Below are positions 1-50,859 of a stretch of 51,828 bases of DNA, piece by piece. A program made the translations under genes and the position numbers. The stretch lies in contig JBIIJY010000002.1 in assembly GCA_044233485.1 (NCBI GenBank), positions 74,047 to 125,874 of the forward strand, in the 5' to 3' direction. Position 1 is the first letter of the stretch; each line of letters starts with the position of its first letter. Below the pieces are notes generated by a model that saw only the letters and a list, made by a program, of their open reading frames with translations, did not search any database and had not been told where the DNA came from. This DNA is from Minisyncoccia bacterium (GTDB lineage: Bacteria > Patescibacteriota > Minisyncoccia > Phycocordibacterales > UBA6065).

Positions 1-241
1 CCCAGGTAGAAGTCCGGTCACGATCGTAGCGCATGAACTCGACCGCTTCTTGAGCTAAAAGTGATGCGGTGAGAGTCTCTCGGGAAAACGCACTCGAGGA
101 GAGGCTGGCCGTCACCACCGAGATCGGTCCAGTAATTGCCAAAGTTAAAATCGCCACCGCAACTAGAGTTTCGATAATGGTAAAACCACGCGAATCGACT
201 CTCGAGAGTTTATGTTTGTTATGACTAAAGGGTCTCCACAT
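1..241 (-). CDS. Prepilin-type (pseudopilin-like) protein, N-terminal part; the gene runs off the left edge
   Basis: Reverse translation from the ATG at 241-239 gives MWRPFSHNKHKLSRVDSRGFTIIETLVAVAILTLAITGP... This has the G|FTxxE prepilin cleavage/methylation motif followed by a hydrophobic helix. It is absent from the ORF track because it is truncated. Confidence 0.7.
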   Translation of the reverse strand, partial: MWRPFSHNKHKLSRVDSRGFTIIETLVAVAILTLAITGPISVVTASLSSSAFSRETLTASLLAQEAVEFMRYDRDRTSTW

Positions 242-294
242 ATCTCTTAGTATACCTTAGAGCGCGACGCTCGTCGGCGTGGGCGTGGGCACAT

Positions 295-5519: not shown

Positions 5520-7448
5520 TTAGCGCACCTCAAAGCCATTTTCCGTGAGGGCGGTATATACCTTGGTCAGTGGGCTTTGTATTTCTTCTTCAGCAAGCGT
5601 ATGATCGCTCGCCTGAAATACCAGCCGGAATCCGTAGGAATACTTCACCTTGCCATCGTCACCAGCTTTTTCAAAACTATCAAACAATCGCACGCGAACA
5701 CAATGCTCCCCTGCCACGTTCATAAGCATCGATGCAAGTTCTGAAGTGTCTTGTCGCTCCCGAGCAAAAAAGGCTACGTCACGAACAGCAAATGGATAGT
5801 GTGAGTACGGTGCGTACGCCCCCTGTGGTAATACGCCAAACTCAAGTGCGTCGATAGAGGTCGCAGAATCAAGAAATGTACACTCAACTTCAAGTACCCC
5901 ACCATAGACTTCTGGGACTGGCGTAAAAGCTAGCGTAGTACATGAGAGTTTCTGCTCGCGAGCACACTCCTCAAGTGCTGCTTCAAGCGCTTTTTGTACA
6001 TCAAATCCTTTTCGCTTTTTGGGCATACCGTAGGCGATAGCCACGTGTGTCTTTTCACCTGATTGAGGAAAGACAGTTCCAACTTCAAAAAGTTTTATCT
6101 CATCGAGCCCAAGCAAGTCGGCATTACGAGTATTCTTTACAAGCGCACTCGCGAGCCCTGAGCTTAACTCTTCACGAAGACAACTTTTGTCTGTCGCGAT
6201 AGGATACGCTGTCTCAAAATACCCGCGATTGACGAGTGAATAGAGCATCACCTCAGTAAAGCCTTGTCGGAGGAAACTTGTCTTCACTGACTCCATGAGC
6301 AGAAACTCATTACTGTAGACTGGCGCACTCGCGATGGTCGGCACACTGACCCCGACTCGCTCGTAGCCGAGCAAACGCCCGACTTCTTCGACGACATCTT
6401 CTCTCCGGACGAGATCCAGTCGCCACACCGGAGCGGTGACTAAGTATTCTCTAGCACCGAGAACCTCGACTTGCACCCCTAGACGATTCATTTGAGTAGT
6501 AAATTCCTGTTCAGTGACCTCGAAACCAAGGCGTGATGAAATATACGAAAGCGAGACCTGGAATGTCGGTCGCTTAGGTGGCGTAAATACTGCCACTTGA
6601 GTATCTTGAATGGTTCCAAACTGTGGCGAAGTAAGACATTTTGTGAGGCAATTAGAGAGTTCATGCATTGCCTCGAGAGTGAGCTCATCACGGACAATAT
6701 TTTCATATCGCTTTGATGCATCGGTGCGTATTCCGTGACGCACACCAGCACGTCGGACAAGTACTCCATTGAAGCACGCCGCCATGCAGAAAATCCGCTT
6801 CGTCTGAGTGTCCACTTCAGCTCGAGCTCCACCCTTAATACCAGCTAGATCCAACGGCCCCTGCTCGTCAGCGACAACATGATCATCGGCAGTAAGAGTG
6901 ATTTCTTTTCCACCAAGCAATACTAGTTTTTCACCAGCGCGAGCTTTACGAATCGTTATGTTGCCGACTATTTTGTCTGCATCAAATGCATGTAGTGGTT
7001 GCCCGAGCTCCAGCATAACACGGTTGGTCGCGTCGACAACCGGTGAAATCACTCGAACACCGACAAGTCTCAAGAGGCGCTCTGTCTCGGGAGCACTTAC
7101 TACTGTGTCAGCGCCCGTCACCACCCGAGAGACAAAGCGGCTACAGAAATCAGCGGCTTCGATTGTCACTTTCGGAGTAGCTATTCCAGACTCACCCAGA
7201 ATCGGTGCTGAGGCCTCATGCTGAAATGGTAGGCCAGTAAAGGCATGAACTTCTCGTGCGATACCAAGAAGCGAAAGAGCATAATGATTTCGATCGGCCA
7301 GTGTTTTAACATCAAAAACTGAATCACCTTCGACAGTTTCGATCCCTTCTACCTCAAACACTCGAAAGGTAAAGAGTGTTTCGAGTGTCTGCACATCCGG
7401 CAAAGCTTGATTAAATTTTGACTGCAACCAGGAGTATGGGATTTTCAT
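5520..7448 (-). CDS. pheT: Phenylalanine--tRNA ligase beta subunit (short form, 642 aa)
   Basis: N-terminus MKIPYSWLQ..., B3/4-like VVDATNRVMLELGQPLHAFD, DLAGIKGG. The ATG overlaps the pheS stop (ATGA at 7445-7448). GGAG lies 9 nt upstream. Confidence 0.9.
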   Translation of the reverse strand: MKIPYSWLQSKFNQALPDVQTLETLFTFRVFEVEGIETVEGDSVFDVKTLADRNHYALSLLGIAREVHAFTGLPFQHEASAPILGESGIATPKVTIEAADFCSRFVSRVVTGADTVVSAPETERLLRLVGVRVISPVVDATNRVMLELGQPLHAFDADKIVGNITIRKARAGEKLVLLGGKEITLTADDHVVADEQGPLDLAGIKGGARAEVDTQTKRIFCMAACFNGVLVRRAGVRHGIRTDASKRYENIVRDELTLEAMHELSNCLTKCLTSPQFGTIQDTQVAVFTPPKRPTFQVSLSYISSRLGFEVTEQEFTTQMNRLGVQVEVLGAREYLVTAPVWRLDLVRREDVVEEVGRLLGYERVGVSVPTIASAPVYSNEFLLMESVKTSFLRQGFTEVMLYSLVNRGYFETAYPIATDKSCLREELSSGLASALVKNTRNADLLGLDEIKLFEVGTVFPQSGEKTHVAIAYGMPKKRKGFDVQKALEAALEECAREQKLSCTTLAFTPVPEVYGGVLEVECTFLDSATSIDALEFGVLPQGAYAPYSHYPFAVRDVAFFARERQDTSELASMLMNVAGEHCVRVRLFDSFEKAGDDGKVKYSYGFRLVFQASDHTLAEEEIQSPLTKVYTALTENGFEVR

Positions 7449-8185: not shown

Positions 8186-9133
8186 TTATAACTCAAAGCT
8201 GAAAAGCTTGTCACCGTCTTTAAGGAAGAGTCGCCCTTCATCATCGAGTCGCACATGCGATCCTGGGACTTCATAAAGTGGCACGAGAACGTGCACCGGA
8301 TTCGTACGAACATCTTGTATGTAAACACCTGAAGGGAGCGTGATCAGCACCACATCGAGTCGTTTTGGTAAGAAAGTTACTTCTCGAGCAGATGCAAAGA
8401 CGCGCCCAAGCACGATCTCACGCGCCGGTACACCCGACTCATCGAAAAACTGCTCCGGCGCACTCTCGAGTGATTCTTCGAAGCGAGCAATGAGAGTATC
8501 TCCTCGTTCAAATATCACTACACCGTCTTTTCGAGCAAGTATGGTCGGCAATGTTGTGGTAGAACTTGTCGCACCCACCCCTTTGAGAGCTACAGTAGTT
8601 GTCGCAGTGGTCGTTGCGAAGAGGTTTTTAATGGTGAGATATTCCTCACGCACGAGCGGTGAACTCGTCGCAACTCGCTTCTGAACTTTTGGAGTCGTCG
8701 TTCCCTGACCGACACTCTGGGTCGTCGTCGATACGGTAACAAGTTCAAATTGCGGAATCTCTACCAGTTCTAGATTTTCTGGAATAAGAAAGACTGGCTC
8801 GAGACTTACTTTCTGTTCTTTTACCTTCACTGTTTTATTCCAAGTGAGCGACCCTTCTTTAACCACTTTTACTTCATAGGTCTTGGGAGTCAGCCCAGAC
8901 ACAAACACTTGCGACTTAAAGAATGAAGCTGAGTCAATCAGTACGGAGTCGAGATACACATCGGCTCGAACAGGTACTTGCGCGACCATAAGACCACCTG
9001 TCTTTACTGGACGGAAACCCTGCCCAACTCGGTATCCGAGCGAATACAAAACAACAAGTGGCACTGAGATTGCAAAGATCAGCGCGAAGCAGATGAAATA
9101 GAGTTGTCGAAAACGTCTAGTTTGTTTTTTCAT
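8186..9133 (-). CDS. Membrane-anchored PEGA-domain-like protein
   Basis: N-terminal TM helix (YFICFALIFAISVPLVVLY). PEGA-like beta segment ADVYLDSVLID...LTPKTYEVKVVKEGSLTWNKTVKV. Confidence 0.5.
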   Translation of the reverse strand: MKKQTRRFRQLYFICFALIFAISVPLVVLYSLGYRVGQGFRPVKTGGLMVAQVPVRADVYLDSVLIDSASFFKSQVFVSGLTPKTYEVKVVKEGSLTWNKTVKVKEQKVSLEPVFLIPENLELVEIPQFELVTVSTTTQSVGQGTTTPKVQKRVATSSPLVREEYLTIKNLFATTTATTTVALKGVGATSSTTTLPTILARKDGVVIFERGDTLIARFEESLESAPEQFFDESGVPAREIVLGRVFASAREVTFLPKRLDVVLITLPSGVYIQDVRTNPVHVLVPLYEVPGSHVRLDDEGRLFLKDGDKLFSFEL

Positions 9134-10664: not shown

Positions 10665-10738
10665 AATAGGACTACATTACCAAAAAAACGATAAAATGAA
10701 AGGTTTTTGTTTATTTTATCCTCAGAGTGATTTTATAG

Positions 10739-10936
10739 AGAACGTACGAAGGTACATTCTTGAAGTATGGAACAAAGTGAGCCACTTCCCAGGATCTTTC
10801 CCGCGACTCAAAACTCGCCGTCGCTCGTTTTGGTCTGGGCACCGCCTCGCTATTTTTCGAAGCGAAAAATATAGCTCCGGCGTTCAAGCCTGGACAGAAT
10901 GTACGAAGGTACATTCTTGAAGCATGGAACAAAGTG
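10739..10936 (-). other. tRNA-Thr-linked structured element, class A. Contains the antisense T-loop segment, conserved core and distal duplicate of the tRNA 3' end plus trailer. The proximal repeat copy (10896-10950) extends 14 nt into the tRNA gene, beyond this feature's end
   Basis: 55-bp direct repeat, 10739-10793 vs 10896-10950 (2 mismatches). GTTCAAGCCTGG at 10882-10893 is inverted relative to 10946-10957. Core 10800-10837 is identical to 17247-17284. Confidence 0.8.
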
Positions 10937-11009
10937 AGCCACTTCCCAGGCTTGAACTGGGGACCTACTGTTTACAAAACAGTTGCTCTACCAACTGAGC
11001 TAAAGTGGC
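10937..11009 (-). tRNA. tRNA-Thr (anticodon UGU)
   Basis: Hand-folded cloverleaf: GCCACTT TA GCTC AGTTGGTA GAGC A ACTGT TTTGTAA ACAGT AGGTC CCCAG TTCAAGC CTGGG AAGTGGC T. 73 nt, no encoded CCA. Confidence 0.85.
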
Positions 11010-11014
11010 AGTAT

Positions 11015-11647
11015 TTATTTGTGTTTTTCCACCCAAGATTCTATCACATCATCGCCGGTGATGCGAGTGCTAGCTTCTTGTTCCACAATAACCTGTGAAT
11101 TTGCGGTAGTACGCATCTTCGGGGCCGCATCAGAGTCCACCACTGACTGCTCAGTGTTTTTCTTTGGCTTCCGTGTTCGCTTTACTGGCTCCTTAACTAT
11201 ATTCTCGGTAAGGATAACTTTTTCCACGGGTGTCGCAGTAGCTTGTACCGGTGTCATTTCGACAAAAGTAGTTTTCCGTTGACTCTTCTCTTGCTTGAGG
11301 GCTTCTATGTACCCCGAAGCCACCGCATGCCGCTTGATCTCAGTATGCTTCTTACGAAGATCAAACAATGTGTGATTGATTTTTCGTTTTGAGTATTCGA
11401 AAAAGGCAATCCCTTTTCCATAGATGACAAGCAGGAGTGCGTAGAAAGATTTTTGCGCTTTGAGAAAGAATTCAGGGGCAAATTTACTCTCGATAGAATG
11501 ATAAAGGTCACGTAGTGGCACATCGAGAACTAGCTGCAATCGTTTAAAGACAAGACGTCTCCCTCCACGGACAAATGCCTCGTGCTCAATGAAGACACCC
11601 ACAATCACAAGACCTGATAGGCAAAAGAGTATGAATGGAAACAACAT
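11015..11647 (-). CDS. Hypothetical membrane-anchored, Lys-rich protein
   Basis: 210-aa ORF whose ATG overlaps the tsf stop by 1 nt. N-terminal TM helix. No motif recognised. Confidence 0.5.
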   Translation of the reverse strand: MLFPFILFCLSGLVIVGVFIEHEAFVRGGRRLVFKRLQLVLDVPLRDLYHSIESKFAPEFFLKAQKSFYALLLVIYGKGIAFFEYSKRKINHTLFDLRKKHTEIKRHAVASGYIEALKQEKSQRKTTFVEMTPVQATATPVEKVILTENIVKEPVKRTRKPKKNTEQSVVDSDAAPKMRTTANSQVIVEQEASTRITGDDVIESWVEKHK

Positions 11648-16974: not shown

Positions 16975-17223
16975 CTAGACCTTCTCGAACCTTGTCTTCT
17001 CTATGCCTTGATAGATGACCTTTTCAAACCACTGATCAAGAGGCCGAGTGAAAAAATTGGCGTCGGCATTCTCGTAGAGTGGCTTATAGACAACCATCCA
17101 GATGTCGTCATTTGAATGAATCGCGAGACCGACCACCTTGTAGAGGTCACCTTTATAGTGGCGGTACCGCTCTCCTGCGACAGGAACTCTCGGAGGTAAC
17201 AGTGGGATTATCCCTTTGGTCAT
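16975..17223 (-). CDS. DUF1653-like small protein
   Basis: GERYRHYKGDLYKVVGLAIHSNDDIWMVVYKPLY pattern as I remember for DUF1653. The ATG lies inside the duplicated tRNA-Asp trailer. Confidence 0.55.
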   Translation of the reverse strand: MTKGIIPLLPPRVPVAGERYRHYKGDLYKVVGLAIHSNDDIWMVVYKPLYENADANFFTRPLDQWFEKVIYQGIEKTRFEKV

Positions 17224-17401
17224 TTTTGCGCGCCCGACCGGACTTGCCCGCGACTCAAAACTCGCCGTCGCTCGTTTTGGTCTGTACCACAGGAGTACTT
17301 CTAGTTTGATAAATCAAACTATGTCGAGCACCGCCTCGCTATGTTTCGGAGCGAAACATATAGCTCCGGCGTTCAAGTCCGAAAAACACTTCGTATTTTT
17401 G
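17222..17401 (-). other. tRNA-Asp-linked structured element, class A. Contains the antisense T-arm segment, conserved core with an extra hairpin, and distal duplicate of the tRNA 3' end. The proximal repeat copy (17395-17419) extends 18 nt into the tRNA gene, beyond this feature's end
   Basis: 25-bp direct repeat, 17222-17246 = 17395-17419. GTTCAAGTCCG at 17371-17381 is inverted relative to 17412-17422. Core blocks 17247-17284 and 17329-17377 match the Thr copy 38/38 and 46/49. Confidence 0.8.
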
Positions 17402-17477
17402 CGCGCCCGACCGGACTTGAACCGGCGACCTCTCCCGTGACAGGGGAGCGCTCTAACCAAAACTGAGCTACGGGCGC
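17402..17477 (-). tRNA. tRNA-Asp (anticodon GUC)
   Basis: GCGCCCG TA GCTC AGTTTTGGTTA GAGC G CTCCC CTGTCAC GGGAG AGGTC GCCGG TTCAAGT CCGGT CGGGCGC G. 76 nt, no encoded CCA. Confidence 0.85.
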
Positions 17478-26602: not shown

Positions 26603-26694
26603 GGAGACGTGGCTGAGCTGGCCGAAAGCGCCTCATTGCTAACGAGGTATCCCGCCTTAAAACGGGATCGGGGGTTCGAATCCCCCCGTCTCCG
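26603..26694 (+). tRNA. tRNA-Ser (anticodon GCU), class II with a long variable arm
   Basis: GGAGACG TG GCTG..AGC G CCTCA TTGCTAA CGAGG TATCCCGCCTTAAAACGGGATC GGGGG TTCGAAT CCCCC CGTCTCC G. There is an A31:C39 mismatch in my fold. No encoded CCA. Confidence 0.8.
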
Positions 26695-26846
26695 CAGGAG
26701 AAAATGTAACAGCGTTACATTTTAGAGAAAGCTCTAGGAGAGCTTTCGTGGGGGATTCGAAAACCTTTTGCGTATAATTTGCAATTTCCTGAGGTAAATT
26801 ATCCAAAAGGTGTACTGATCCTGTAAGGATCGAATCCCCAGGCACC
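26695..26846 (+). other. tRNA-Ser(GCU)-linked structured element, class B
   Basis: Hairpins at 26701-26723 and 26727-26747. GGGGGATTCGAA at 26750-26761 is the exact reverse complement of T-loop/3' T-stem 26675-26686. Nested hairpin 26764-26810. CGAATCCCC at 26831-26839 is a degenerate second copy of the tRNA 3' end. Confidence 0.7.
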
Positions 26847-26869: not shown

Positions 26870-26956
26870 GGAGGCGTGGATGAGTGGTTTAAATCAACGG
26901 TTTACTAAACCGTCGTTCCTTTACCGGAACCGTGAGTTCGAATCTCACCGCCTCCG
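26870..26956 (+). tRNA. Class II tRNA, Ser-type (G73, long variable arm). My fold puts ACU at positions 34-36
   Basis: GGAGGCG TG GAT..ATC A ACGGT TTACTAA ACCGT CGTTCCTTTACCGGAACC GTGAG TTCGAAT CTCAC CGCCTCC G. The 5-bp anticodon stem is perfect. The anticodon call needs tRNAscan-SE. Confidence 0.7.
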
Positions 26957-27131
26957 CATAATAATGAGCTTGCGAATATATTTTGCGTGAGGTGAGAAAG
27001 TGCTGGGAGCACTTTCGTGTGAGATTCGAAAGACGGAATAAAAATTTTGAGCTCAAAATTTTATGAGTCGGGGTCGCGAGCTCCGAGTTGCAACGAGGAG
27101 ACTTGTGACCGAATCTCCTACCGCCTCCGCA
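26957..27131 (+). other. tRNA-Ser-linked structured element, class B
   Basis: Hairpin 26996-27016. GTGAGATTCGAA at 27019-27030 is the exact reverse complement of 26937-26948. 22-nt palindrome at 27041-27062. CGAATCTC at 27110-27117 plus ACCGCCTCCGCA at 27120-27131 (identical to 26947-26958). Confidence 0.75.
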
Positions 27132-27220: not shown

Positions 27221-27961
27221 TTACATGTGGTTCAAAAGACTTTTCTCTTTAATTTCTTTTATACCCTTTGGTAACAGATGGTAAAAACCGTCTTTAAGAG
27301 CGATCAGTTTTTTGGAGACCATGGAAGAGACAGTCTTACTAAATCGAGTCTTGTTGTCATCCTTTGTTTTGGAGAAAAGAAAGTCGAAGTCACGCTTTTC
27401 AGCTGATGAAAGCACCAGTATCTCTTGTCTCACGGTGAGGTCATCTCTTGCGATGAATTCCTCACCTTCAATATCAAAGATAACTGGATAGTTAGGGATA
27501 GCAATCCTGTCTATTATCTTTTGAGCCTCATCCATTGTGTAATTGCCGTAGACACGGATGAACTCGGCGAATATCCAATTTGCGCAAGAGAGAACAAAAC
27601 TTGCATCAATTTTATTTGCATTGAAGTTGCCGAGATGCGCGACGTCACGATTGTTTCTGAAATCAAGGAGTAGTTTTGTTAGTGATGTTACTTTCTGACG
27701 GATGTGCTCGTCGATATTGGCATCGTTTGTGACTTTATTGATAATCGTCGTTTTATCTGCCGCTTTGATGTCTTCACCGAAGGGTGTAATTGGCGTGCTC
27801 AGTAAATGTTGAAAGATACGTAGTACAGCTTCTGCAAATCTGCCACCATTCAATTGAGCCGGTCCACAATCATTCAATTGGAACCGACGCTTTATCTCGG
27901 TGTATTCCTCAAGAAGCTTATCCTCAAGGTTATCAGGAATGGTCGTAAGAATTCTTGTCAT
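27221..27961 (-). CDS. Hypothetical protein with a HEPN-like Rx6H motif (Abi_C/AbiJ-HEPN-like) and a C-terminal winged-helix-like region
   Basis: All-helical N-terminal part with LLLDFRNNRDVAHLGN (R102-H109). C-terminus FSKTVSSMVSKKLIALKDGFYHLLPKG. Last gene of a tightly overlapping four-gene operon. Confidence 0.4.
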   Translation of the reverse strand: MTRILTTIPDNLEDKLLEEYTEIKRRFQLNDCGPAQLNGGRFAEAVLRIFQHLLSTPITPFGEDIKAADKTTIINKVTNDANIDEHIRQKVTSLTKLLLDFRNNRDVAHLGNFNANKIDASFVLSCANWIFAEFIRVYGNYTMDEAQKIIDRIAIPNYPVIFDIEGEEFIARDDLTVRQEILVLSSAEKRDFDFLFSKTKDDNKTRFSKTVSSMVSKKLIALKDGFYHLLPKGIKEIKEKSLLNHM

Positions 27962-28355
27962 GTTTTTTAAAGATGTCCTTCCAATGCTTGCCTAGGATAT
28001 AAGATGCCCGAGTCTCTTTGGATGAATCAACCCAGCCATTTTCCTTCGCACGAGTTGAAAAGGTAGAAGCATAAGGAACACCAATCATCCCAGAGCAGCT
28101 TTTCCAAACAGATTTAATTCGTAGGAGGTCTACCGGCACATCTTCTTTTCCTTTAGCCAGATACGCTGATATAAGGGTGAAGAATTCTTGCCCATTAAAT
28201 CCAGACGAGTATTTTTTGATAAACGCTCTTTCGTTGAGAGAAAAATCTAAACCTGATGCACCAGCAGTGACTGTCGAGGCAACGACACTTTTGGCGAATA
28301 CAGCCTTCTCAAGTTTCTCCAATCTTTCTTTGATTTCAGTAATTTCTTTTTCCAT
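27933..28355 (-). CDS. Hypothetical protein (N-terminal coiled coil)
   Basis: 140-aa ORF, MEKEITEIKERLEKLEKAVF... It overlaps the downstream gene by 29 nt. No family recognised. Confidence 0.5.
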   Translation of the reverse strand: MEKEITEIKERLEKLEKAVFAKSVVASTVTAGASGLDFSLNERAFIKKYSSGFNGQEFFTLISAYLAKGKEDVPVDLLRIKSVWKSCSGMIGVPYASTFSTRAKENGWVDSSKETRASYILGKHWKDIFKKHDKNSYDHS

Positions 28356-28360
28356 AGTAT

Positions 28361-28702
28361 TTATTTTCTCTTAGAATAGACCCATTTCTTAGGAGTTCCA
28401 TCACGTTCCAATATTTGTTTCGGTGGCTTTACTAGATTCAAGAGATTCATCGATACAGATGTGTTCTTGAAAGATGTTTGACCTCGCTTTTTTAATTTAT
28501 CCATAATCTGAGGCATACCCTTAGGCTCATCAAAGAAACCCTCTCCCACAAGTTCCTGAATAGCCCCAATACAGTTGGTTGCCTTTTTTGTACTACTCTT
28601 AGTAACATACTTTTGAATCGGAGCTGTCCCAGCGGGAGCTCCCTCAAGTTCATTCAGCAATGCTCTTATTTGAGCGACAATTTCATTAGTCGTTTTTTTC
28701 AT
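28361..28702 (-). CDS. Hypothetical protein
   Basis: I chose the ATG at 28702 (MKKTTNEIVAQIRALLNELEG...). The longer track start at 28771 would overlap the upstream gene by 86 nt. No family recognised. Confidence 0.45.
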   Translation of the reverse strand: MKKTTNEIVAQIRALLNELEGAPAGTAPIQKYVTKSSTKKATNCIGAIQELVGEGFFDEPKGMPQIMDKLKKRGQTSFKNTSVSMNLLNLVKPPKQILERDGTPKKWVYSKRK

Positions 28703-29102
28703 GGTTGTTGAGAATATTCTTAGTCTTGATTTTCGAGACTTGATAGCTGGTAATGTAGTAACCTGTGTCATCAGAAGTCACCAGGCTACCTCCCTTGGTT
28801 TCTTTTAGAAGCTTAAGTGTCGGGAGTACGCTTCCTTTTGATATACCGGTTTCTTCAATAATATCTTTCGGCTTAACTCGATCCGTTTCGATTTCACCTA
28901 AAAGAAACAGAGCTTTTTTCCCCAAGAGGAAAAGGACGATTCTATTCTTGAGTGATTGCTTTAGAGTGGAATCAAGAAAGATTATGTTCTTACTCGTCTT
29001 GTTAATTTTAATAAATGGAGACAGGAGATCAAAAAGCTCGGTGGCGTTTATATCATTGTCGTCCGTAAACAGTTGCTTCAAAACTTCGTGTTTATCAGTC
29101 AT
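28686..29102 (-). CDS. Hypothetical protein with a winged-helix-like segment
   Basis: IIEETGISKGSVLPTLKLLKETKGGSLVTSDDTGYYIT resembles a MarR/ArsR-type wHTH. First gene of the operon. Confidence 0.45.
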   Translation of the reverse strand: MTDKHEVLKQLFTDDNDINATELFDLLSPFIKINKTSKNIIFLDSTLKQSLKNRIVLFLLGKKALFLLGEIETDRVKPKDIIEETGISKGSVLPTLKLLKETKGGSLVTSDDTGYYITSYQVSKIKTKNILNNHEKND

Positions 29103-29576
29103 GTGTATATGGGTTAATTAATAATTTCAATCGCTCGCTACAGCGGGAGGTTGATTTGAAAAGATTATAGCATAGGTCAAAGATTATTTGCAAGTACTTG
29201 AAGTAAATACTATTTTTATAATGGTGATATTTGCTCGAATTTATAGGGTTTTGGTGTCATATTGAGCATTGCTGTTCCTTTACTAAACATAATCATTTTT
29301 ATATCTATCCTATTATGTCCTTTAAAATAAGGAGATTATCAATATAATAAAGATTGTAAAACTGTCTATTTATAAAGAAACATATATTGATTATCAATAT
29401 CTTTAATCAAAATAGCCATAATACCTATGTTTATAAGGGCTTTTAGAGGGTATCTAAATTTTCTTATAATCAATAGTGTTCTTTCATATCTGAAACCTAC
29501 TTATTTAAAGTACTAAAAAACACCCTATTTTGGCTATAAAATGATCCCAAACATGTAAAAAGCTCTGTTTCTAAGA

Positions 29577-29837
29577 TTATATCACTCTTGTTTCTATCGT
29601 TACTACCTTTGCAGTCACCTTTATCTTCGATTTGAAGCACCCCATTAGCTCACGTTTCTCCTCGTTTGAACCGTCCATGAGGATGTACTTGGCGTAAGTC
29701 TTCAGGTCGATTTCCTTATGTGTTCCTCCTGACTTGCTCATGCCAAGCACTCCTCGGTTGAATTTGTTGTATCGCTTAAGCTCTTCGTTGAACTTGATCT
29801 GTATGCCAGTCTGGTAATAAAACAACATCTTTTGCAT
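29577..29837 (-). CDS. Small hypothetical protein. The start is uncertain; it may be the shifted C-terminus of the upstream orphan
   Basis: 86-aa ORF overlapping the upstream ORF by 62 nt. Alternative ATG at 29741 (MSKSGGTHKEIDL...). Confidence 0.35.
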   Translation of the reverse strand: MQKMLFYYQTGIQIKFNEELKRYNKFNRGVLGMSKSGGTHKEIDLKTYAKYILMDGSNEEKRELMGCFKSKIKVTAKVVTIETRVI

Positions 29838-30954
29838 AAACAGTAATTAATCCAATTTGGTTTATACCAAAGTGGATTAATCCCCATCGAGTAAAACCAA
29901 TCCCTCCGGTATCTTTTGTGTACCAAGACAAACTTGTTTCTTTGTTAGCTAAAATGGAATTAACTACTTCAGGTTTGAACCACAAGTATTTTCCACTATC
30001 AATCAGGTTTTTAGCTTTTTCTTTGCTCCCAGCGGCATCAACAATGTACGAATACTCTTCGTGCGCTTCATCATTTAAAATAATAGAACTCTTTAGTGCA
30101 GGAAAAACAAAATCATTTTTCCACACTTCTCCTTCAATCCTGTAAAGTTTTTTTCCTTTAAAACCTCGAATCCAATTTTTACTTTCAACATTTGTTTCGT
30201 TAGTTGAAAATGGATACTCTGGGACATCCTCATTAAAGTCAATATTTGTTCTACCTACATGAAATATAGCCATTTTCTCACCAAATCTATGACTACTGCC
30301 CTCATGTATTGGCCACATCCTACCACTCCACTTTATTCCATCTTTATTATCAATAATCTTTTCTAATTCCCAGTCAACTTTTATTTCGTTCTCCAAGACT
30401 TCAGTCCTAGACTTGTAGGAAGAAATAAATAAAATTCTATCTCTCACACATAGATAGTCTTTTAAGTAGTTCAATCTAATTAAAATCTCATCAACGCATC
30501 CATTCTGATTTTTATGTAACTTTATTACTTCCTCATGTCCTCTATTGTATGCAAACCAATTATCGTTCTCTTGAACCAATTCAAGCGTTGAAAGTAAGTC
30601 TGGGCTAATATACCAATTGTTACAATACTCACCGCCAATTTCATGGGCAATTATTAAATTTTCACCCTCTATTCCATCACATTCAAAATAATGTGCTGGT
30701 TTATACTCATCCTCGTAAGGATTTCCTTTATGTCCTCTGATCAATCCGACATCTATCCACTCTAATTTTTTTGCTTTTTCAGCATCCTCCTTTTTAATCA
30801 AAATGCTTGTGGAACCAAAATATTCTTCTTTAAAGCCTAAACAGCCATATTCACCTTCGCTTATGTATTTTCTTGAAGATCTCAAGGGTACCCAGACTTG
30901 CTTATCCGCTTTTTGATCAATGTAGTCTTTCAGTTCAAACCACTCTTTTTGCAT
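29776..30954 (-). CDS. Orphan 392-aa protein, no recognisable motif, low GC
   Basis: Long ORF in AT-rich DNA. The N-terminal 46 codons of the track ORF overlap the VOC gene, so I chose the ATG at 30954 (MQKEWFELKDY...). The ATG at 30981 is an alternative. Confidence 0.55.
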   Translation of the reverse strand: MQKEWFELKDYIDQKADKQVWVPLRSSRKYISEGEYGCLGFKEEYFGSTSILIKKEDAEKAKKLEWIDVGLIRGHKGNPYEDEYKPAHYFECDGIEGENLIIAHEIGGEYCNNWYISPDLLSTLELVQENDNWFAYNRGHEEVIKLHKNQNGCVDEILIRLNYLKDYLCVRDRILFISSYKSRTEVLENEIKVDWELEKIIDNKDGIKWSGRMWPIHEGSSHRFGEKMAIFHVGRTNIDFNEDVPEYPFSTNETNVESKNWIRGFKGKKLYRIEGEVWKNDFVFPALKSSIILNDEAHEEYSYIVDAAGSKEKAKNLIDSGKYLWFKPEVVNSILANKETSLSWYTKDTGGIGFTRWGLIHFGINQIGLITVYAKDVVLLPDWHTDQVQRRA

Positions 30955-30959
30955 AGTAA

Positions 30960-31352
30960 TTAGGTTGTTATCCTCGTACATATCTCCAACAAGAATCCAT
31001 TTATGTCGCGGAGGTAGCCGACGGTTTGACCCCAAGGCTTTTGAGTTGGCTCTTTTACTATTTCCGCTCCCGCTTCGACCGCTTGTTTCCATGCACTTTC
31101 AATATCATCTGCCACAAAGGTAATTTCAAAAGGTGAAGGTAATTCTTGTGAGTATCGCCTTTCAATAGCGATGCCGTTGTATTCAGCAACACTGTATGAG
31201 GCAAAGGCAAGAGTGGTACCACCGGTTTCAAGCTCGCCGTAGTCTTTTTCTGGAGTGATGAATTTTTGTGCAATGCCAAAAGCCTTCACATAAAACGCGA
31301 GTGTCGCTTCGACATTTTCTACATATAAAATTGTGTATCCGTATTTGATCAT
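30960..31352 (-). CDS. VOC (glyoxalase/bleomycin-resistance/dioxygenase) family protein
   Basis: MIKYGYTILYVENVEATLAFYVKAFG...KPWGQTVGYLRDINGFLLEI. Confidence 0.75.
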   Translation of the reverse strand: MIKYGYTILYVENVEATLAFYVKAFGIAQKFITPEKDYGELETGGTTLAFASYSVAEYNGIAIERRYSQELPSPFEITFVADDIESAWKQAVEAGAEIVKEPTQKPWGQTVGYLRDINGFLLEICTRITT

Positions 31353-49616: not shown

Positions 49617-50459
49617 CTACAAAATATACAGATCCTGATTGTATTGCCCGACACCTACATACTCAGCCTCACCAGCCAGAATCGCCTCAAACGGTTTACA
49701 GGCAAAACACCCCTTCGCCCCACGTGGGCAGGTAAACACTTTCGTATCTCTGGCTTTTTTCACCTCACGCGCCACAGCAAGTACTTGTTCTCGAGCATTA
49801 GCGAGTTCAGGAAGGGGCTTCTCGACTGGAGCGTCGTCTTTATCTACATACCAATAACTCGCGCCAGTTACGGCTCGTTTTTGCAAAGCATTGAGAAGGA
49901 GTACGTAAATAGGTAATTGCAATGAATCTTCTTTTTCTTCGTTCTTCCCCGTTTTAAAATCCAAGATGTGAATACTGTCATTTTCAGGAACATACTGCAT
50001 CCAATCGATCTTGCCGCAAAGGATAATATTGTTCGCTTCATCGAGGTAAAAATTCGGGAGTTCCTGCTTCATTCGCAGTGCTTTCTCCTTGAGCGGTTCA
50101 GGATGAGCCTCGACGCGAGCAAGCATCGCTTCCCCTCGCTTCTTTACTTCCATTTCCTCATCTGCTGACTTAAATCCACCCCATTTTCCACTCACCTTTT
50201 TCCACGCAATCTGAAATTGATCAATGAGGCTTTTTTCGAAACGCTTTTCTGCGGGCAGTAGAGCCAGACCTTCAAGCACTTCATGCACCGACTGGCCGAG
50301 AGCCAGCGCGGGATTGGTGATATTTATTTTGTGACCAGTCTCAGGGTCTTTGTATACATTATGAAGAAAATAAGCGCGCGGGCACTTCAAAAAATCACCC
50401 ATGGAAGAGTGTGATACCCAGGTAGCGCCGTATTTATTTGAATATCCGCTTGAAGCCAT
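49617..50459 (-). CDS. PD-(D/E)XK nuclease, Cas4/RecB-like, with four Cys suggestive of an Fe-S cluster
   Basis: N-terminal FLKCPRAYFL. GKIDWM...IHILDFKTGK (D...DxK). C-terminal CPRGAKGCFAC. I preferred the ATG at 50459; the track start is GTG at 50507. Confidence 0.6.
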   Translation of the reverse strand: MASSGYSNKYGATWVSHSSMGDFLKCPRAYFLHNVYKDPETGHKINITNPALALGQSVHEVLEGLALLPAEKRFEKSLIDQFQIAWKKVSGKWGGFKSADEEMEVKKRGEAMLARVEAHPEPLKEKALRMKQELPNFYLDEANNIILCGKIDWMQYVPENDSIHILDFKTGKNEEKEDSLQLPIYVLLLNALQKRAVTGASYWYVDKDDAPVEKPLPELANAREQVLAVAREVKKARDTKVFTCPRGAKGCFACKPFEAILAGEAEYVGVGQYNQDLYIL

Positions 50460-50496
50460 TGTGTACTGGTATAGTATCATATTTGCTATACTACAG

Positions 50497-50859
50497 ATGA
50501 AAGGCACACCACGTATGACGGATATGACGGACGAATTCTTTACAAGACTCGTCGGTCAACCATACCGACGACACGACCCACATCTGCAGATTACAGAGCG
50601 TGGGACTATCGAAAACCTCAAAGTCAGAGCTGACACTACCGATGACTCAGTAGATGTAACAATCGAGCTTAAACGAAGGCAGATTGCCGGACGAGTCTGG
50701 CAACGGCTCGTTGGTTGGATACGCACACGAAACACTCCCCGGAGAGTTCAGATCACCGTAGATCTGGGGACTTGCAGTATGATTGTCGGGAAGCGACGGA
50801 TACGATTCCAAGCTCCTGATGGCCAAGTGGTCTTTATCAGACTACCCCACACAGGTTGA
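50497..50859 (+). CDS. Hypothetical Arg-rich small protein
   Basis: I chose the ATG at 50497 (MKGTPRMTDMTDEFF...). No family recognised, and the start is uncertain. Confidence 0.4.
   Translation: MKGTPRMTDMTDEFFTRLVGQPYRRHDPHLQITERGTIENLKVRADTTDDSVDVTIELKRRQIAGRVWQRLVGWIRTRNTPRRVQITVDLGTCSMIVGKRRIRFQAPDGQVVFIRLPHTG

Follow-up and report, generated by a model that had tools for sequence, protein, structure and literature searches.

Behind the gene for tRNA-Asp(GTC), in a 51,828-nucleotide stretch of Minisyncoccia DNA (contig JBIIJY010000002.1, positions 74,047 to 125,874; hereafter the window), lies a small insert that begins with an antisense copy of part of the tRNA and ends in a duplicate of the tRNA 3′ end. 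Comparison with related sequences that lack the insert indicates that the feature is a real insertion with target duplication. As for its nature, we give roughly even chances to a non-autonomous mobile element of ~100 nt, without an open reading frame (ORF), that occupies the 3′ trailers of tRNA genes in Paceibacteria in the orientation of the tRNA and uses a guide. The hosts are bacteria of the Candidate Phyla Radiation (CPR). The genes of the window are type IV pilin and housekeeping genes, and a near-identical strain is available on a 681-kb contig.

All parts of the Asp copy lie on the minus strand and are described here in the direction of the tRNA. The host gene is intact (17401–17477; ARAGORN, and 66 bits as an Rfam tRNA), and its sequence is the same in relatives L010 and L011. 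The first target copy (DR1, 17395–17419), delimited by an exact 25-nt repeat, runs from C56 of the T-loop through the 3′ acceptor strand into the trailer, and comparison with L010 and L011 carries its target-derived part to ~17388. The trailer hairpin AAAAATAC-gaa-GTGTTTTT (17382–17400) has a native 5′ arm and a native start to its 3′ arm, and its final T run is derived from the insert. The insert occupies 141 nt (17247–17387), including a nested segment of 44 nt, with GT(TTTT) at its 5′ end and ..GAGTCGCGGG at its 3′ end; a covariance model matches the copy at 17237–17384 with 71.9 bits. Close to the 5′ end is the antisense T-arm segment (17371–17381), in which CGGACTTGAAC (17381>17371) is the exact reverse complement of GTTCAAGTCCG (17422>17412), the T-loop plus the 3′ strand of the T-stem. 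In computed folds this segment pairs with the start of either DR1 or the second copy, DR2; CGGACTTG forms the 5′ strand of a closing helix, P1, and the junction bases AAC come next. Helix P2 (17330–17370), defined by folds and covariation, leads from a basal stem GCCG/CGGT through an internal loop rich in purines to a hairpin that contains a 2-nt bulge and ends in a variable tip. The nested 44 nt (17285–17328) stand at the junction of P2 with helix P3 and form a 9-bp hairpin, TAGTTTGAT..ATCAAACTA, plus a GTACTCCTGTGG motif. P3 (17247–17284) is a long hairpin, GAC-CAAAAC/GTTTTG-A-GTC, with a bulged A in the 3′ arm, an internal loop of tandem GA/GA, and a tip, GC-GACG-GC, that does not vary; GCGGG comes after it. 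DR2 (17222–17246), supported by the exact repeat (17246>17222 = 17419>17395) and by comparison with L010 and L011, again starts at C56 of the T-loop.

A sister copy, also on the minus strand, stands behind tRNA-Thr(TGT) (10936–11009; tRNA prediction and Rfam). Here DR1 spans 55 nt (10896–10950): it begins at the 3′ strand of the T-stem and stops where the native trailer hairpin (10896–10917) has its 3′ foot. The element follows with 102 nt (10794–10895; 102.9 bits with the covariance model), and DR2, likewise 55 nt (10739–10793), is 96% identical to DR1. Its parts come in the order GT, antisense segment CCAGGCTTG (10885–10893), P2 (10841–10881), P3 (10805–10835), and GGGAAAGAT. Block 17247–17284 of the Asp copy matches 10800–10837 of the Thr copy at 38/38 positions, and block 17329–17377 matches 10840–10888 at 46/49, with two of the three differences forming a compensatory pair in P2. 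Where the Asp copy has the nested 44 nt, the Thr copy has just GG. In shuffled sequences, 0.00 and 0.09 occurrences of the core motifs would be expected, compared to the two occurrences observed in the window. An earlier note on this DNA had reported the exact T-arm antisense, the 25-nt repeat, the two conserved blocks, the compensatory pair, and the 44-nt hairpin insertion, and all of its figures were reproduced.

The evidence for insertion comes from relatives in which the same sites are occupied or empty; at the empty tRNA-Asp and tRNA-Thr loci, the segment that is duplicated in the window occurs as a single copy. L010 and L011 share a neighboring protein with the Asp locus (84% and 77% identical, respectively), and L012 is syntenic at tRNA-Thr. 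In L010, tRNA-Asp runs directly into its native trailer, caaaaatacgaagtgtatct, with no element. In L011, the element is present without the nested 44 nt and lies between two copies of CAAGTCCGGTCGGGCGCGCAAAA(A)TACGAAGT, after the second of which the native trailer resumes; this target duplication measures ~32 nt and ends in ..ACGAAGT. In L012, tRNA-Thr is followed by the native trailer, a 9-bp trailer hairpin, and then unrelated sequence, again with no element. Because the trailer hairpin is present at this empty site, it is native to the Thr locus, and a T:A pair of the window version is replaced in it by C:G, a compensatory change. Compared with L012, Thr DR1 and DR2 have five substitutions in common, and two positions distinguish the copies from one another; the shared substitutions show that the duplication arose in this lineage and was not imported. 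The duplicated segment extends from the T-loop (position 55–57) to the 3′ foot of the first trailer hairpin, and its length differs among loci (~32 nt at Asp, 55 nt at Thr, 47 nt in L004, and 73 nt at tRNA-Trp of L001). Since the element sits between two copies of its target, the tRNA stays intact.

The far end of the Asp copy has been reshaped by a deletion of ~0.7 kb at 17222–17230, which removed a 208-aa gene found between tRNA-Asp and the DUF1653 gene in L010 and L011. The junction shows AAAAT microhomology; the trailer side of DR2 is truncated, and DR2 is fused through AAAAAT to the DUF1653 start codon. The repeat thus does overlap this ATG, as the earlier note had pointed out, but the overlap is a by-product of the loss of the 208-aa gene.

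Further copies were recovered by database search. The exact 38-nt block was found in two metagenome-assembled genomes (Zambryskibacteria and Paceibacterota) and seven metagenome contigs. Each match is a small unit right behind a tRNA gene and in the same orientation, the hosts being tRNAs for Tyr, Glu, Ser, Thr(GGT), Asn, Arg, and Trp, with two more cut off at contig ends. This brings the family to thirteen class-A copies, all tRNA-linked, behind at least ten different tRNAs in Paceibacteria genomes and metagenomes. All 11 database matches to the P3 motif are mini-elements within ~250 nt of a tRNA and none is long, and across 122 kb the covariance model identified tRNA-linked copies only, with none elsewhere. 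Most tRNA genes in the related contigs that we examined carry such a module, and some do without (tRNA-Leu of L001).

Across these copies, the insert starts directly past the first trailer hairpin with GT and 8–12 nt complementary to the T-loop and 3′ T-stem strand of the host tRNA, and DR2 at the far end begins in the T-loop. This left boundary, hairpin foot plus GT, recurs at unrelated tRNAs. At 12 of 13 loci there is an exact antisense match of 9–12 nt to the T-loop and 3′ T-stem strand of the unit's own tRNA, in line with the earlier suggestion that this segment is re-tailored to each host. When tRNAs were assigned to units at random, the observed complementarity was reached in 0 of 100,000 permutations (p < 1e-5).

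All four tRNAs of the window carry a module of this kind. The two tRNA-Ser genes (26603–26695 and 26870–26957) are each followed by a plus-strand unit with a 12-nt antisense copy of its own T-arm. The unit behind tRNA-Ser(ACT) (27017–27131) is a divergent family member (covariance model 45.7 bits, E = 3e-11) composed of GT, antisense segment GTGAGATTCGAA (27019–27030), P2, P3 (27072–27110), and DR2 (27110–27131), and it folds as a three-way junction (z = −5.2). The unit behind tRNA-Ser(GCT) (26748–26839; fold z = −5.1) belongs to a second class with the same layout and an unrelated core: a hairpin, GT, antisense segment GGGGGATTCGAA (26750–26761), two hairpins, and DR2 (26830–26839).

On the tRNA-sense strand, every copy of every class folds into a three-way junction of P1, P2, and P3. 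P1 is formed by the antisense segment and the first 8–12 nt of the tRNA-derived repeat. In P2, a short basal stem is followed by the purine-rich internal loop and a hairpin whose tip is hypervariable in sequence and length; all pairs of the tip helix have changed on either side. Applied to a MAFFT alignment of ten copies, RNAalifold recovered all three helices, with compensatory changes in 16/24 pairs. The observed covariation was reached by 0/500 shuffles, both on this alignment and on a model-fitted alignment of 14 sequences, which bears out the claim that the helices covary. In the model-fitted alignment, 94.9% of cells are paired compared to at most 47% when partners are slid; although this alignment is biased in favor of the structure, the MAFFT alignment leads to the same conclusion.

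P3 is near-invariant, with compensatory variants in L001 (4755–4863), in the window (27072–27110), and in L016. In these three variants, A/T runs are swapped or stems replaced, while the hairpin, the bulged A, and the GA-flanked tip are kept. The earlier note had proposed two crossing helices within the 38-nt block. The hairpin CAAAAC/GTTTTG stands, but the crossing pair GCGAC/GTCGC, invariant in most copies, has disappeared from the L016 and L001 Trp variants, which retain the extended hairpin; a single long hairpin with a bulge therefore describes the block better than a pseudoknot does. We also considered coding potential, as ORFs at 17216–17440 (+), 10696–10920 (+), and 10711–10932 (−) overlap the elements. 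These were rejected because the 44-nt indel and others whose lengths are not multiples of three, as well as the variable hairpin lengths and the compensatory changes, break any conserved frame.

The two tRNA-like parts of the element differ in how well they are kept. DR2 has diverged from the live tRNA at L001 Tyr, L007 Asn, L008 Arg, and the Thr locus of the window, whereas the antisense segment matches the live tRNA in 4/4. In L007, ~five changes are seen over 26 nt of the distal repeat, compared to none in the 12-nt antisense T-arm and none in another antisense stretch of 16 nt, which copies the acceptor strand and trailer. The distal repeat thus behaves as a decaying by-product, and the antisense segment, P2, and P3 are maintained. 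This corrects the idea that the terminal duplicate, too, is re-tailored to each tRNA: the empty sites identify it as the target duplication made by insertion, and it decays while the antisense segment does not. Element-level selection for tRNA recognition would explain the maintenance, and so would a function for the host.

Several loci show signs of mobility. Behind tRNA-Trp of L001, two different elements stand in series with an 84-nt repeat between them that takes in the tail and trailer of the tRNA, the hairpin, and the antisense segment. Two copies stand in tandem in L004, the second of them interrupted between P2 and P3, like the Asp copy. A GTACT..CCTGT..G motif is common to the 44 nt of the Asp copy and the other element class, which identifies the 44 nt as a nested insertion; the extra hairpin described in the earlier note is present, but it is not an optional stem of the structure. 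The P2/P3 junction is an insertion hot spot between two helices. At tRNA-Ser(GCT), the occupants differ between the window and its 83%-identical relative L016. In the latter (60–290, minus strand), the trailer holds a class-A-like element with the third P3 variant together with a class-B 3′-end remnant, so the occupant of this site has turned over. Assemblies of near-identical strains end inside elements (L018, L019, L020, and L021), as expected for repeats. In one of these, L021, GCCCAGACC stands upstream of P3 at the Asp locus (1–70), as if the 44 nt were missing. This could reflect strain polymorphism or an assembly path through the identical Thr copy, as the contig starts inside the repeat. 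In L004 (~85–115, minus strand), a 12-nt palindrome, GGCCTTTAGGCC, lies inside the distal tRNA repeat and is flanked by a TCC duplication, a tiny hairpin insertion in its own right.

We propose that the element would be moved in trans by an enzyme encoded elsewhere and would travel as a folded single strand. The antisense segment would act as the guide, pairing with the T-arm strand of the target gene and setting a break in the T-loop at position 55–57. A second break would fall at the foot of the next hairpin, and filling of the staggered ends would duplicate the interval, giving a variable length and never interrupting the tRNA. The invariant tip and bulged A of P3 would be a likely handle for the mobilizing protein. 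Of the two possible forms of the strand, RNA co-transcribed with the tRNA is somewhat favored over single-stranded DNA for four reasons, none of them decisive: the sense strand folds better than the antisense strand in 10/12 copies; its internal loops are tandem G-A; the window has no terminator-like site between tRNA and element; and the repeat ends match possible RNA ends, namely a hairpin foot or, in three copies, a CCA that the live gene does not encode. How the guide might be renewed at a new tRNA can be pictured in two ways. The Thr and Asp guides differ at 2–3 of their last eight positions, and it is conceivable that a few substitutions are selected afterwards. A templated route is conceivable as well, either by quasi-palindrome correction against the neighboring tRNA or through a copy made from the target in the course of repair. 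As an origin of the antisense segment, simple fold-back synthesis starting at the trailer hairpin was considered and rejected; it must skip 11 nt (Asp) or 28 nt (Thr) and therefore fails as a one-step process.

A number of points weigh against this reading. Neither an excised or circular form nor a transcript has been observed, and the proposed guide role is drawn from conservation only. Re-targeting by mutation alone would need 2–5 coordinated changes. The empty sites could in principle be precise deletions between repeats. To our knowledge, no transposition chemistry gives duplications of 25–73 nt bounded by two hairpins. As for the form of the strand, consensus pairs contain 6 G-U compared to 5 A-C combinations, which does not discriminate between strands. 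Pfam searches of 40 window ORFs returned no integrase, transposase, HUH nuclease, or reverse transcriptase, so the recombinase or HUH genes that the earlier note had named as possible mobilizers were not found there; the sole nuclease among these ORFs is of the PD-(D/E)XK/Cas4-like type (49617–50507). Finally, several A2-type copies have in DR2 a CCA and a terminator of its own that are missing from the live tRNA end, which fits an element that supplies a replacement 3′ end.

Known systems and databases were searched for relatives of the element. With Rfam 15, only tRNAs and RNase P matched in the whole window at gathering thresholds, and nothing matched over the element at E ≤ 10 (Asp copy) or E ≤ 1 (seven related loci). 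At the same cutoffs, there was no match to group II introns (Intron_gpII, group-II-D1D4), and the tested copies had no Rfam match to known self-cleaving ribozymes (hammerhead, HDV-like, twister, pistol, hatchet). Phage and plasmid collections gave no blastn match. In IMG/VR, the 31-nt P3 pattern had no match, and the 18-nt loop pattern had one chance match inside a coding region, with no element. No long relative with a gene between the antisense segment and P3 occurs among the database matches, one neighboring locus of the window's genome contained no further tRNAs, and the literature that we searched holds no description of such elements.

Many short repeats are, like this element, ORF-less, multi-copy, hairpin-rich, and subject to nested insertion, including miniature inverted-repeat transposable elements (MITEs), Correia elements, Rickettsia palindromic elements, repetitive extragenic palindromes and the mosaic elements built from them, and mitochondrial double-hairpin elements. 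MITE-type repeats are mobilized in trans or by an unknown route. In contrast to MITEs, however, the element has no conserved terminal inverted repeats, as the sole one, between antisense segment and repeat, differs for each tRNA. Its target duplication is long and variable (25–73 nt) rather than short and fixed (2–10 nt), and it combines strict specificity for tRNA trailers with a fixed orientation. The subterminal hairpins, extrahelical bases, target-pairing segments, and single-stranded intermediates of the palindrome-associated elements (PATEs) of IS200/IS605, the omega RNA of TnpB, and the bridge RNA of IS110 offer another comparison. The element does have subterminal hairpins, which alone do not suffice to place it here, and its pairing would involve 8–12 nt of the tRNA T-arm, but these systems make no long duplication and their autonomous forms encode an enzyme, whereas no TnpA, TnpB, or IS110 gene and no HUH transposase was found among the window ORFs searched. 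PATEs, moreover, insert 3′ of a fixed tetra- or pentanucleotide and have a TnpA partner. Integron attC and CTX-phage sites recombine as folded single strands, imperfect palindromes with extrahelical bases and conserved R boxes (GTTRRRY) that have IntI or Xer as partner. Among the copies, a tRNA 3′ half, a loop, and its inverse form palindromes with an extruded hairpin (L005 Glu and L007 Asn), and P3 has a bulged A; the R-box consensus is absent, and no recombinase was identified.

Seen against these systems, the element could belong to a new guide-directed insertion system, in which an RNA or single-stranded DNA of ~100 nt pairs through 8–12 nt with a chosen T-arm and the guide is renewed or re-selected for each tRNA. 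We put this forward tentatively, as a possibility short of our favored view. The tRNA 3′ end might serve such a system as template or primer. Should the antisense segment prove to be a genuine guide, the element would represent a very small, re-targetable safe-harbor insertion system to set beside bridge RNAs and omega RNAs. An RNA intermediate, if there is one, would link tRNA 3′ ends to bacterial retro-mobility. The element also provides a case for how a mobile element can target an essential single-copy gene without destroying it. CPR genomes of ~0.7 Mb have little spare DNA, and yet most tRNA genes examined carry modules. In practice, metagenome assemblies break at tRNA loci because of these repeats, and partial tRNA copies can mislead annotation.

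Integration at tRNA genes classically leaves a partial duplicate of the tRNA at the far end (PMC9897764), and the strongest alternative builds on this signature. The element could be a miniature that carries only an attP site, a circle with a tRNA 3′ end recombined at the T-loop by a distant tyrosine integrase, in which case DR1 was imported and DR2 is the displaced original. The flanking repeats of the tRNA 3′ part (25 nt and 55 nt) start in the T-loop or T-stem as in such elements. Position on the 3′ side of the tRNA, a repeat that always begins in the T-loop, and tandem arrays resembling serial integration are likewise shared with prophages, integrative and conjugative elements, and islands that integrate at tRNAs, and in outcome the element resembles such islands. 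The decay of the distal repeat fits as well, and so do three loci, L001 Tyr, L008 Arg, and L009, where CCA is missing from the live end but present, together with a separate terminator, in the distal repeat. Nevertheless, we consider this origin unlikely. The copies measure 102–141 nt rather than kilobases, hold no ORF, and have no integrase in or near any of them or in the window, and the database matches to the P3 motif described above include no long element. The repeats have no block of identity that is independent of the host flank; instead they reach into the host-specific trailer, end at the hairpin foot, and include the native hairpin and the five lineage-specific substitutions, none of which is expected of an imported attP. 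The recurrence of the left boundary, hairpin foot plus GT, at unrelated tRNAs is also unexpected. Furthermore, near-identical cores stand behind different tRNAs in one genome, so that one core serves many tRNAs, and a hybrid tRNA arising from integration into a non-cognate gene would be lethal where that gene is single-copy. The antisense T-arm copy has no counterpart in tRNA islands.

A retroelement-like origin would account for other features. In this scenario, RNA is co-transcribed with the tRNA, a reverse transcriptase starts at the 3′ end of a tRNA or pre-tRNA, reads up to the T-loop, and switches template to the module RNA, and the cDNA recombines into the trailer. The variable target duplication (25–73 nt) suits a retroposon, the sense strand has RNA-like fold features, and the repeat boundaries coincide with RNA landmarks, a stop in the T-loop at one end and a hairpin foot, or in three copies a CCA not present in the live gene, at the other. 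Yet CCA ends can equally be native gene ends. The repeats include positions 57–58, so that the stop is not the classical m1A58 block, and there is no poly(A) or other hallmark of retroposition. No reverse transcriptase was seen among the 40 window ORFs. The scenario is compatible with most of the observations, but we regard it as rather improbable. It is similarly doubtful that the antisense segment plays the role of a primer-binding site, although the antisense pieces of L005 Glu and L007 Asn, taken together, are complementary to a stretch that reaches from the T-loop past the tRNA 3′ end, and such a complement resembles a retroviral primer-binding site. Like the antisense segment, primer-binding sites of retroviruses and long terminal repeat (LTR) elements are complementary to the 3′ part of a specific tRNA and bounded in the T-loop, and the Mauriceville retroplasmid of Neurospora incorporates tRNA 3′ ends by template switching of its reverse transcriptase and integrates beside tRNA genes. 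In contrast to these, the element lacks LTRs and a reverse transcriptase and resides in bacteria, and its antisense segment, interrupted by a hairpin in many copies, spans T-loop and T-stem instead of the last 18 nt. The renewal of the antisense segment is also left unexplained by a retroelement model alone. Class C group II introns insert just downstream of hairpins or terminators and find their target partly by pairing of exon- and intron-binding sites; the element similarly sits past a hairpin and carries an internal segment complementary to its target. Unlike such introns, however, it has no domain V or core (no Rfam match), measures ~100 nt, duplicates its target, and shows no sign of splicing.

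A role for the cell must also be weighed. The module could be a structured RNA in the 3′ external spacer of tRNAs, kept for processing, stability, or regulation and not now mobile. The strong conservation and covariation of P2 and P3 across distant Paceibacteria, the probable co-transcription with the tRNA given the missing terminator-like site, the lasting complementarity of the antisense segment to the live tRNA, and the presence of modules at all four window tRNAs would all suit such a role. Still, we find it quite improbable as the explanation of the insert. Presence and absence with clean target duplications among close relatives, different occupants at one tRNA, and nested and tandem copies are at odds with it, and so are the tRNAs that lack a module (L001 Leu) and the sister lineages of this cell, with its 0.68-Mb genome, that do without. 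Domestication of an element is nonetheless conceivable. Small structured RNAs directly behind tRNAs are known from theta (HDV-like) ribozymes and hammerheads, and the type III hammerhead is a three-way junction. We rejected the hammerhead, as the required CUGANGA is replaced by CUGCGGA in A2 copies and has no counterpart in A1 copies, and no Rfam match was obtained; an HDV-like topology was rejected on the wrong order of P1 strands. In contrast to ribozymes, CUGANGA and GAAA are not conserved in the element, and the A1 and A2 junctions differ.

Finally, a chance scar of replication slippage, with local duplication and inversion at tRNA hairpins, is scarcely credible: palindromic tRNA arms and trailer hairpins could promote template switching, and contiguous inverted tRNA 3′ ends behind terminators do exist (the distal region of L007), but the same foreign core of 100 nt behind more than ten tRNAs, the covarying helices, and the empty sites in effect refute it, as the earlier note had argued from the conserved core.

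Other arrangements at tRNA genes were noted along the way. In L005 (366–520 and 3217–3340) and L007 (1850–2018), a tRNA 3′ half, a terminator hairpin, and an antisense acceptor and trailer make up a long palindrome, which a 9-bp hairpin interrupts just before the antisense T-arm; these 9-bp hairpins are of constant dimensions from locus to locus, and they covary. In L005, tRNA-Phe (8480–8540, minus strand) and tRNA-Arg(CCT) (9000–9070, minus strand) have no element but do have direct copies of the T-loop (GTTCGAATCT and GTTCGATT) 50–70 nt downstream, which may be footprints of lost elements. The empty Thr site of L012 has an occupant on the other side of the gene (6330–6630; the window shows the empty state at ~11010–11030): an ORF for a 79-aa GIY-YIG nuclease lies in the 5′ part of tRNA-Thr(TGT), with its stop codon inside the live tRNA. 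Upstream is a pseudo-copy of the leader and of tRNA nucleotides 1–30 with a 39-nt hairpin in the D-loop, a 5′-side mirror of the duplication strategy on the 3′ side.

The second tRNA-Ser gene of the window is itself unusual. Located directly after the normal tRNA-Ser(GCT), tRNA-Ser(ACT) (26870–26957, plus strand) has the anticodon loop TTACTAA and scores 57 bits as a tRNA, and its 5′ part, including this loop, is also present in L016 (positions 1–46). In bacteria, an A34 is uncommon except in tRNA-Arg. Past the pair of tRNA-Ser genes, on their downstream side, four consecutive ORFs of 138–438 aa on the minus strand (27221–31092) have no Pfam match, and genes for GNAT, HTH, and DNA-alkylation-repair proteins lie beyond them; this region may be a genomic island at the tRNA-Ser locus.

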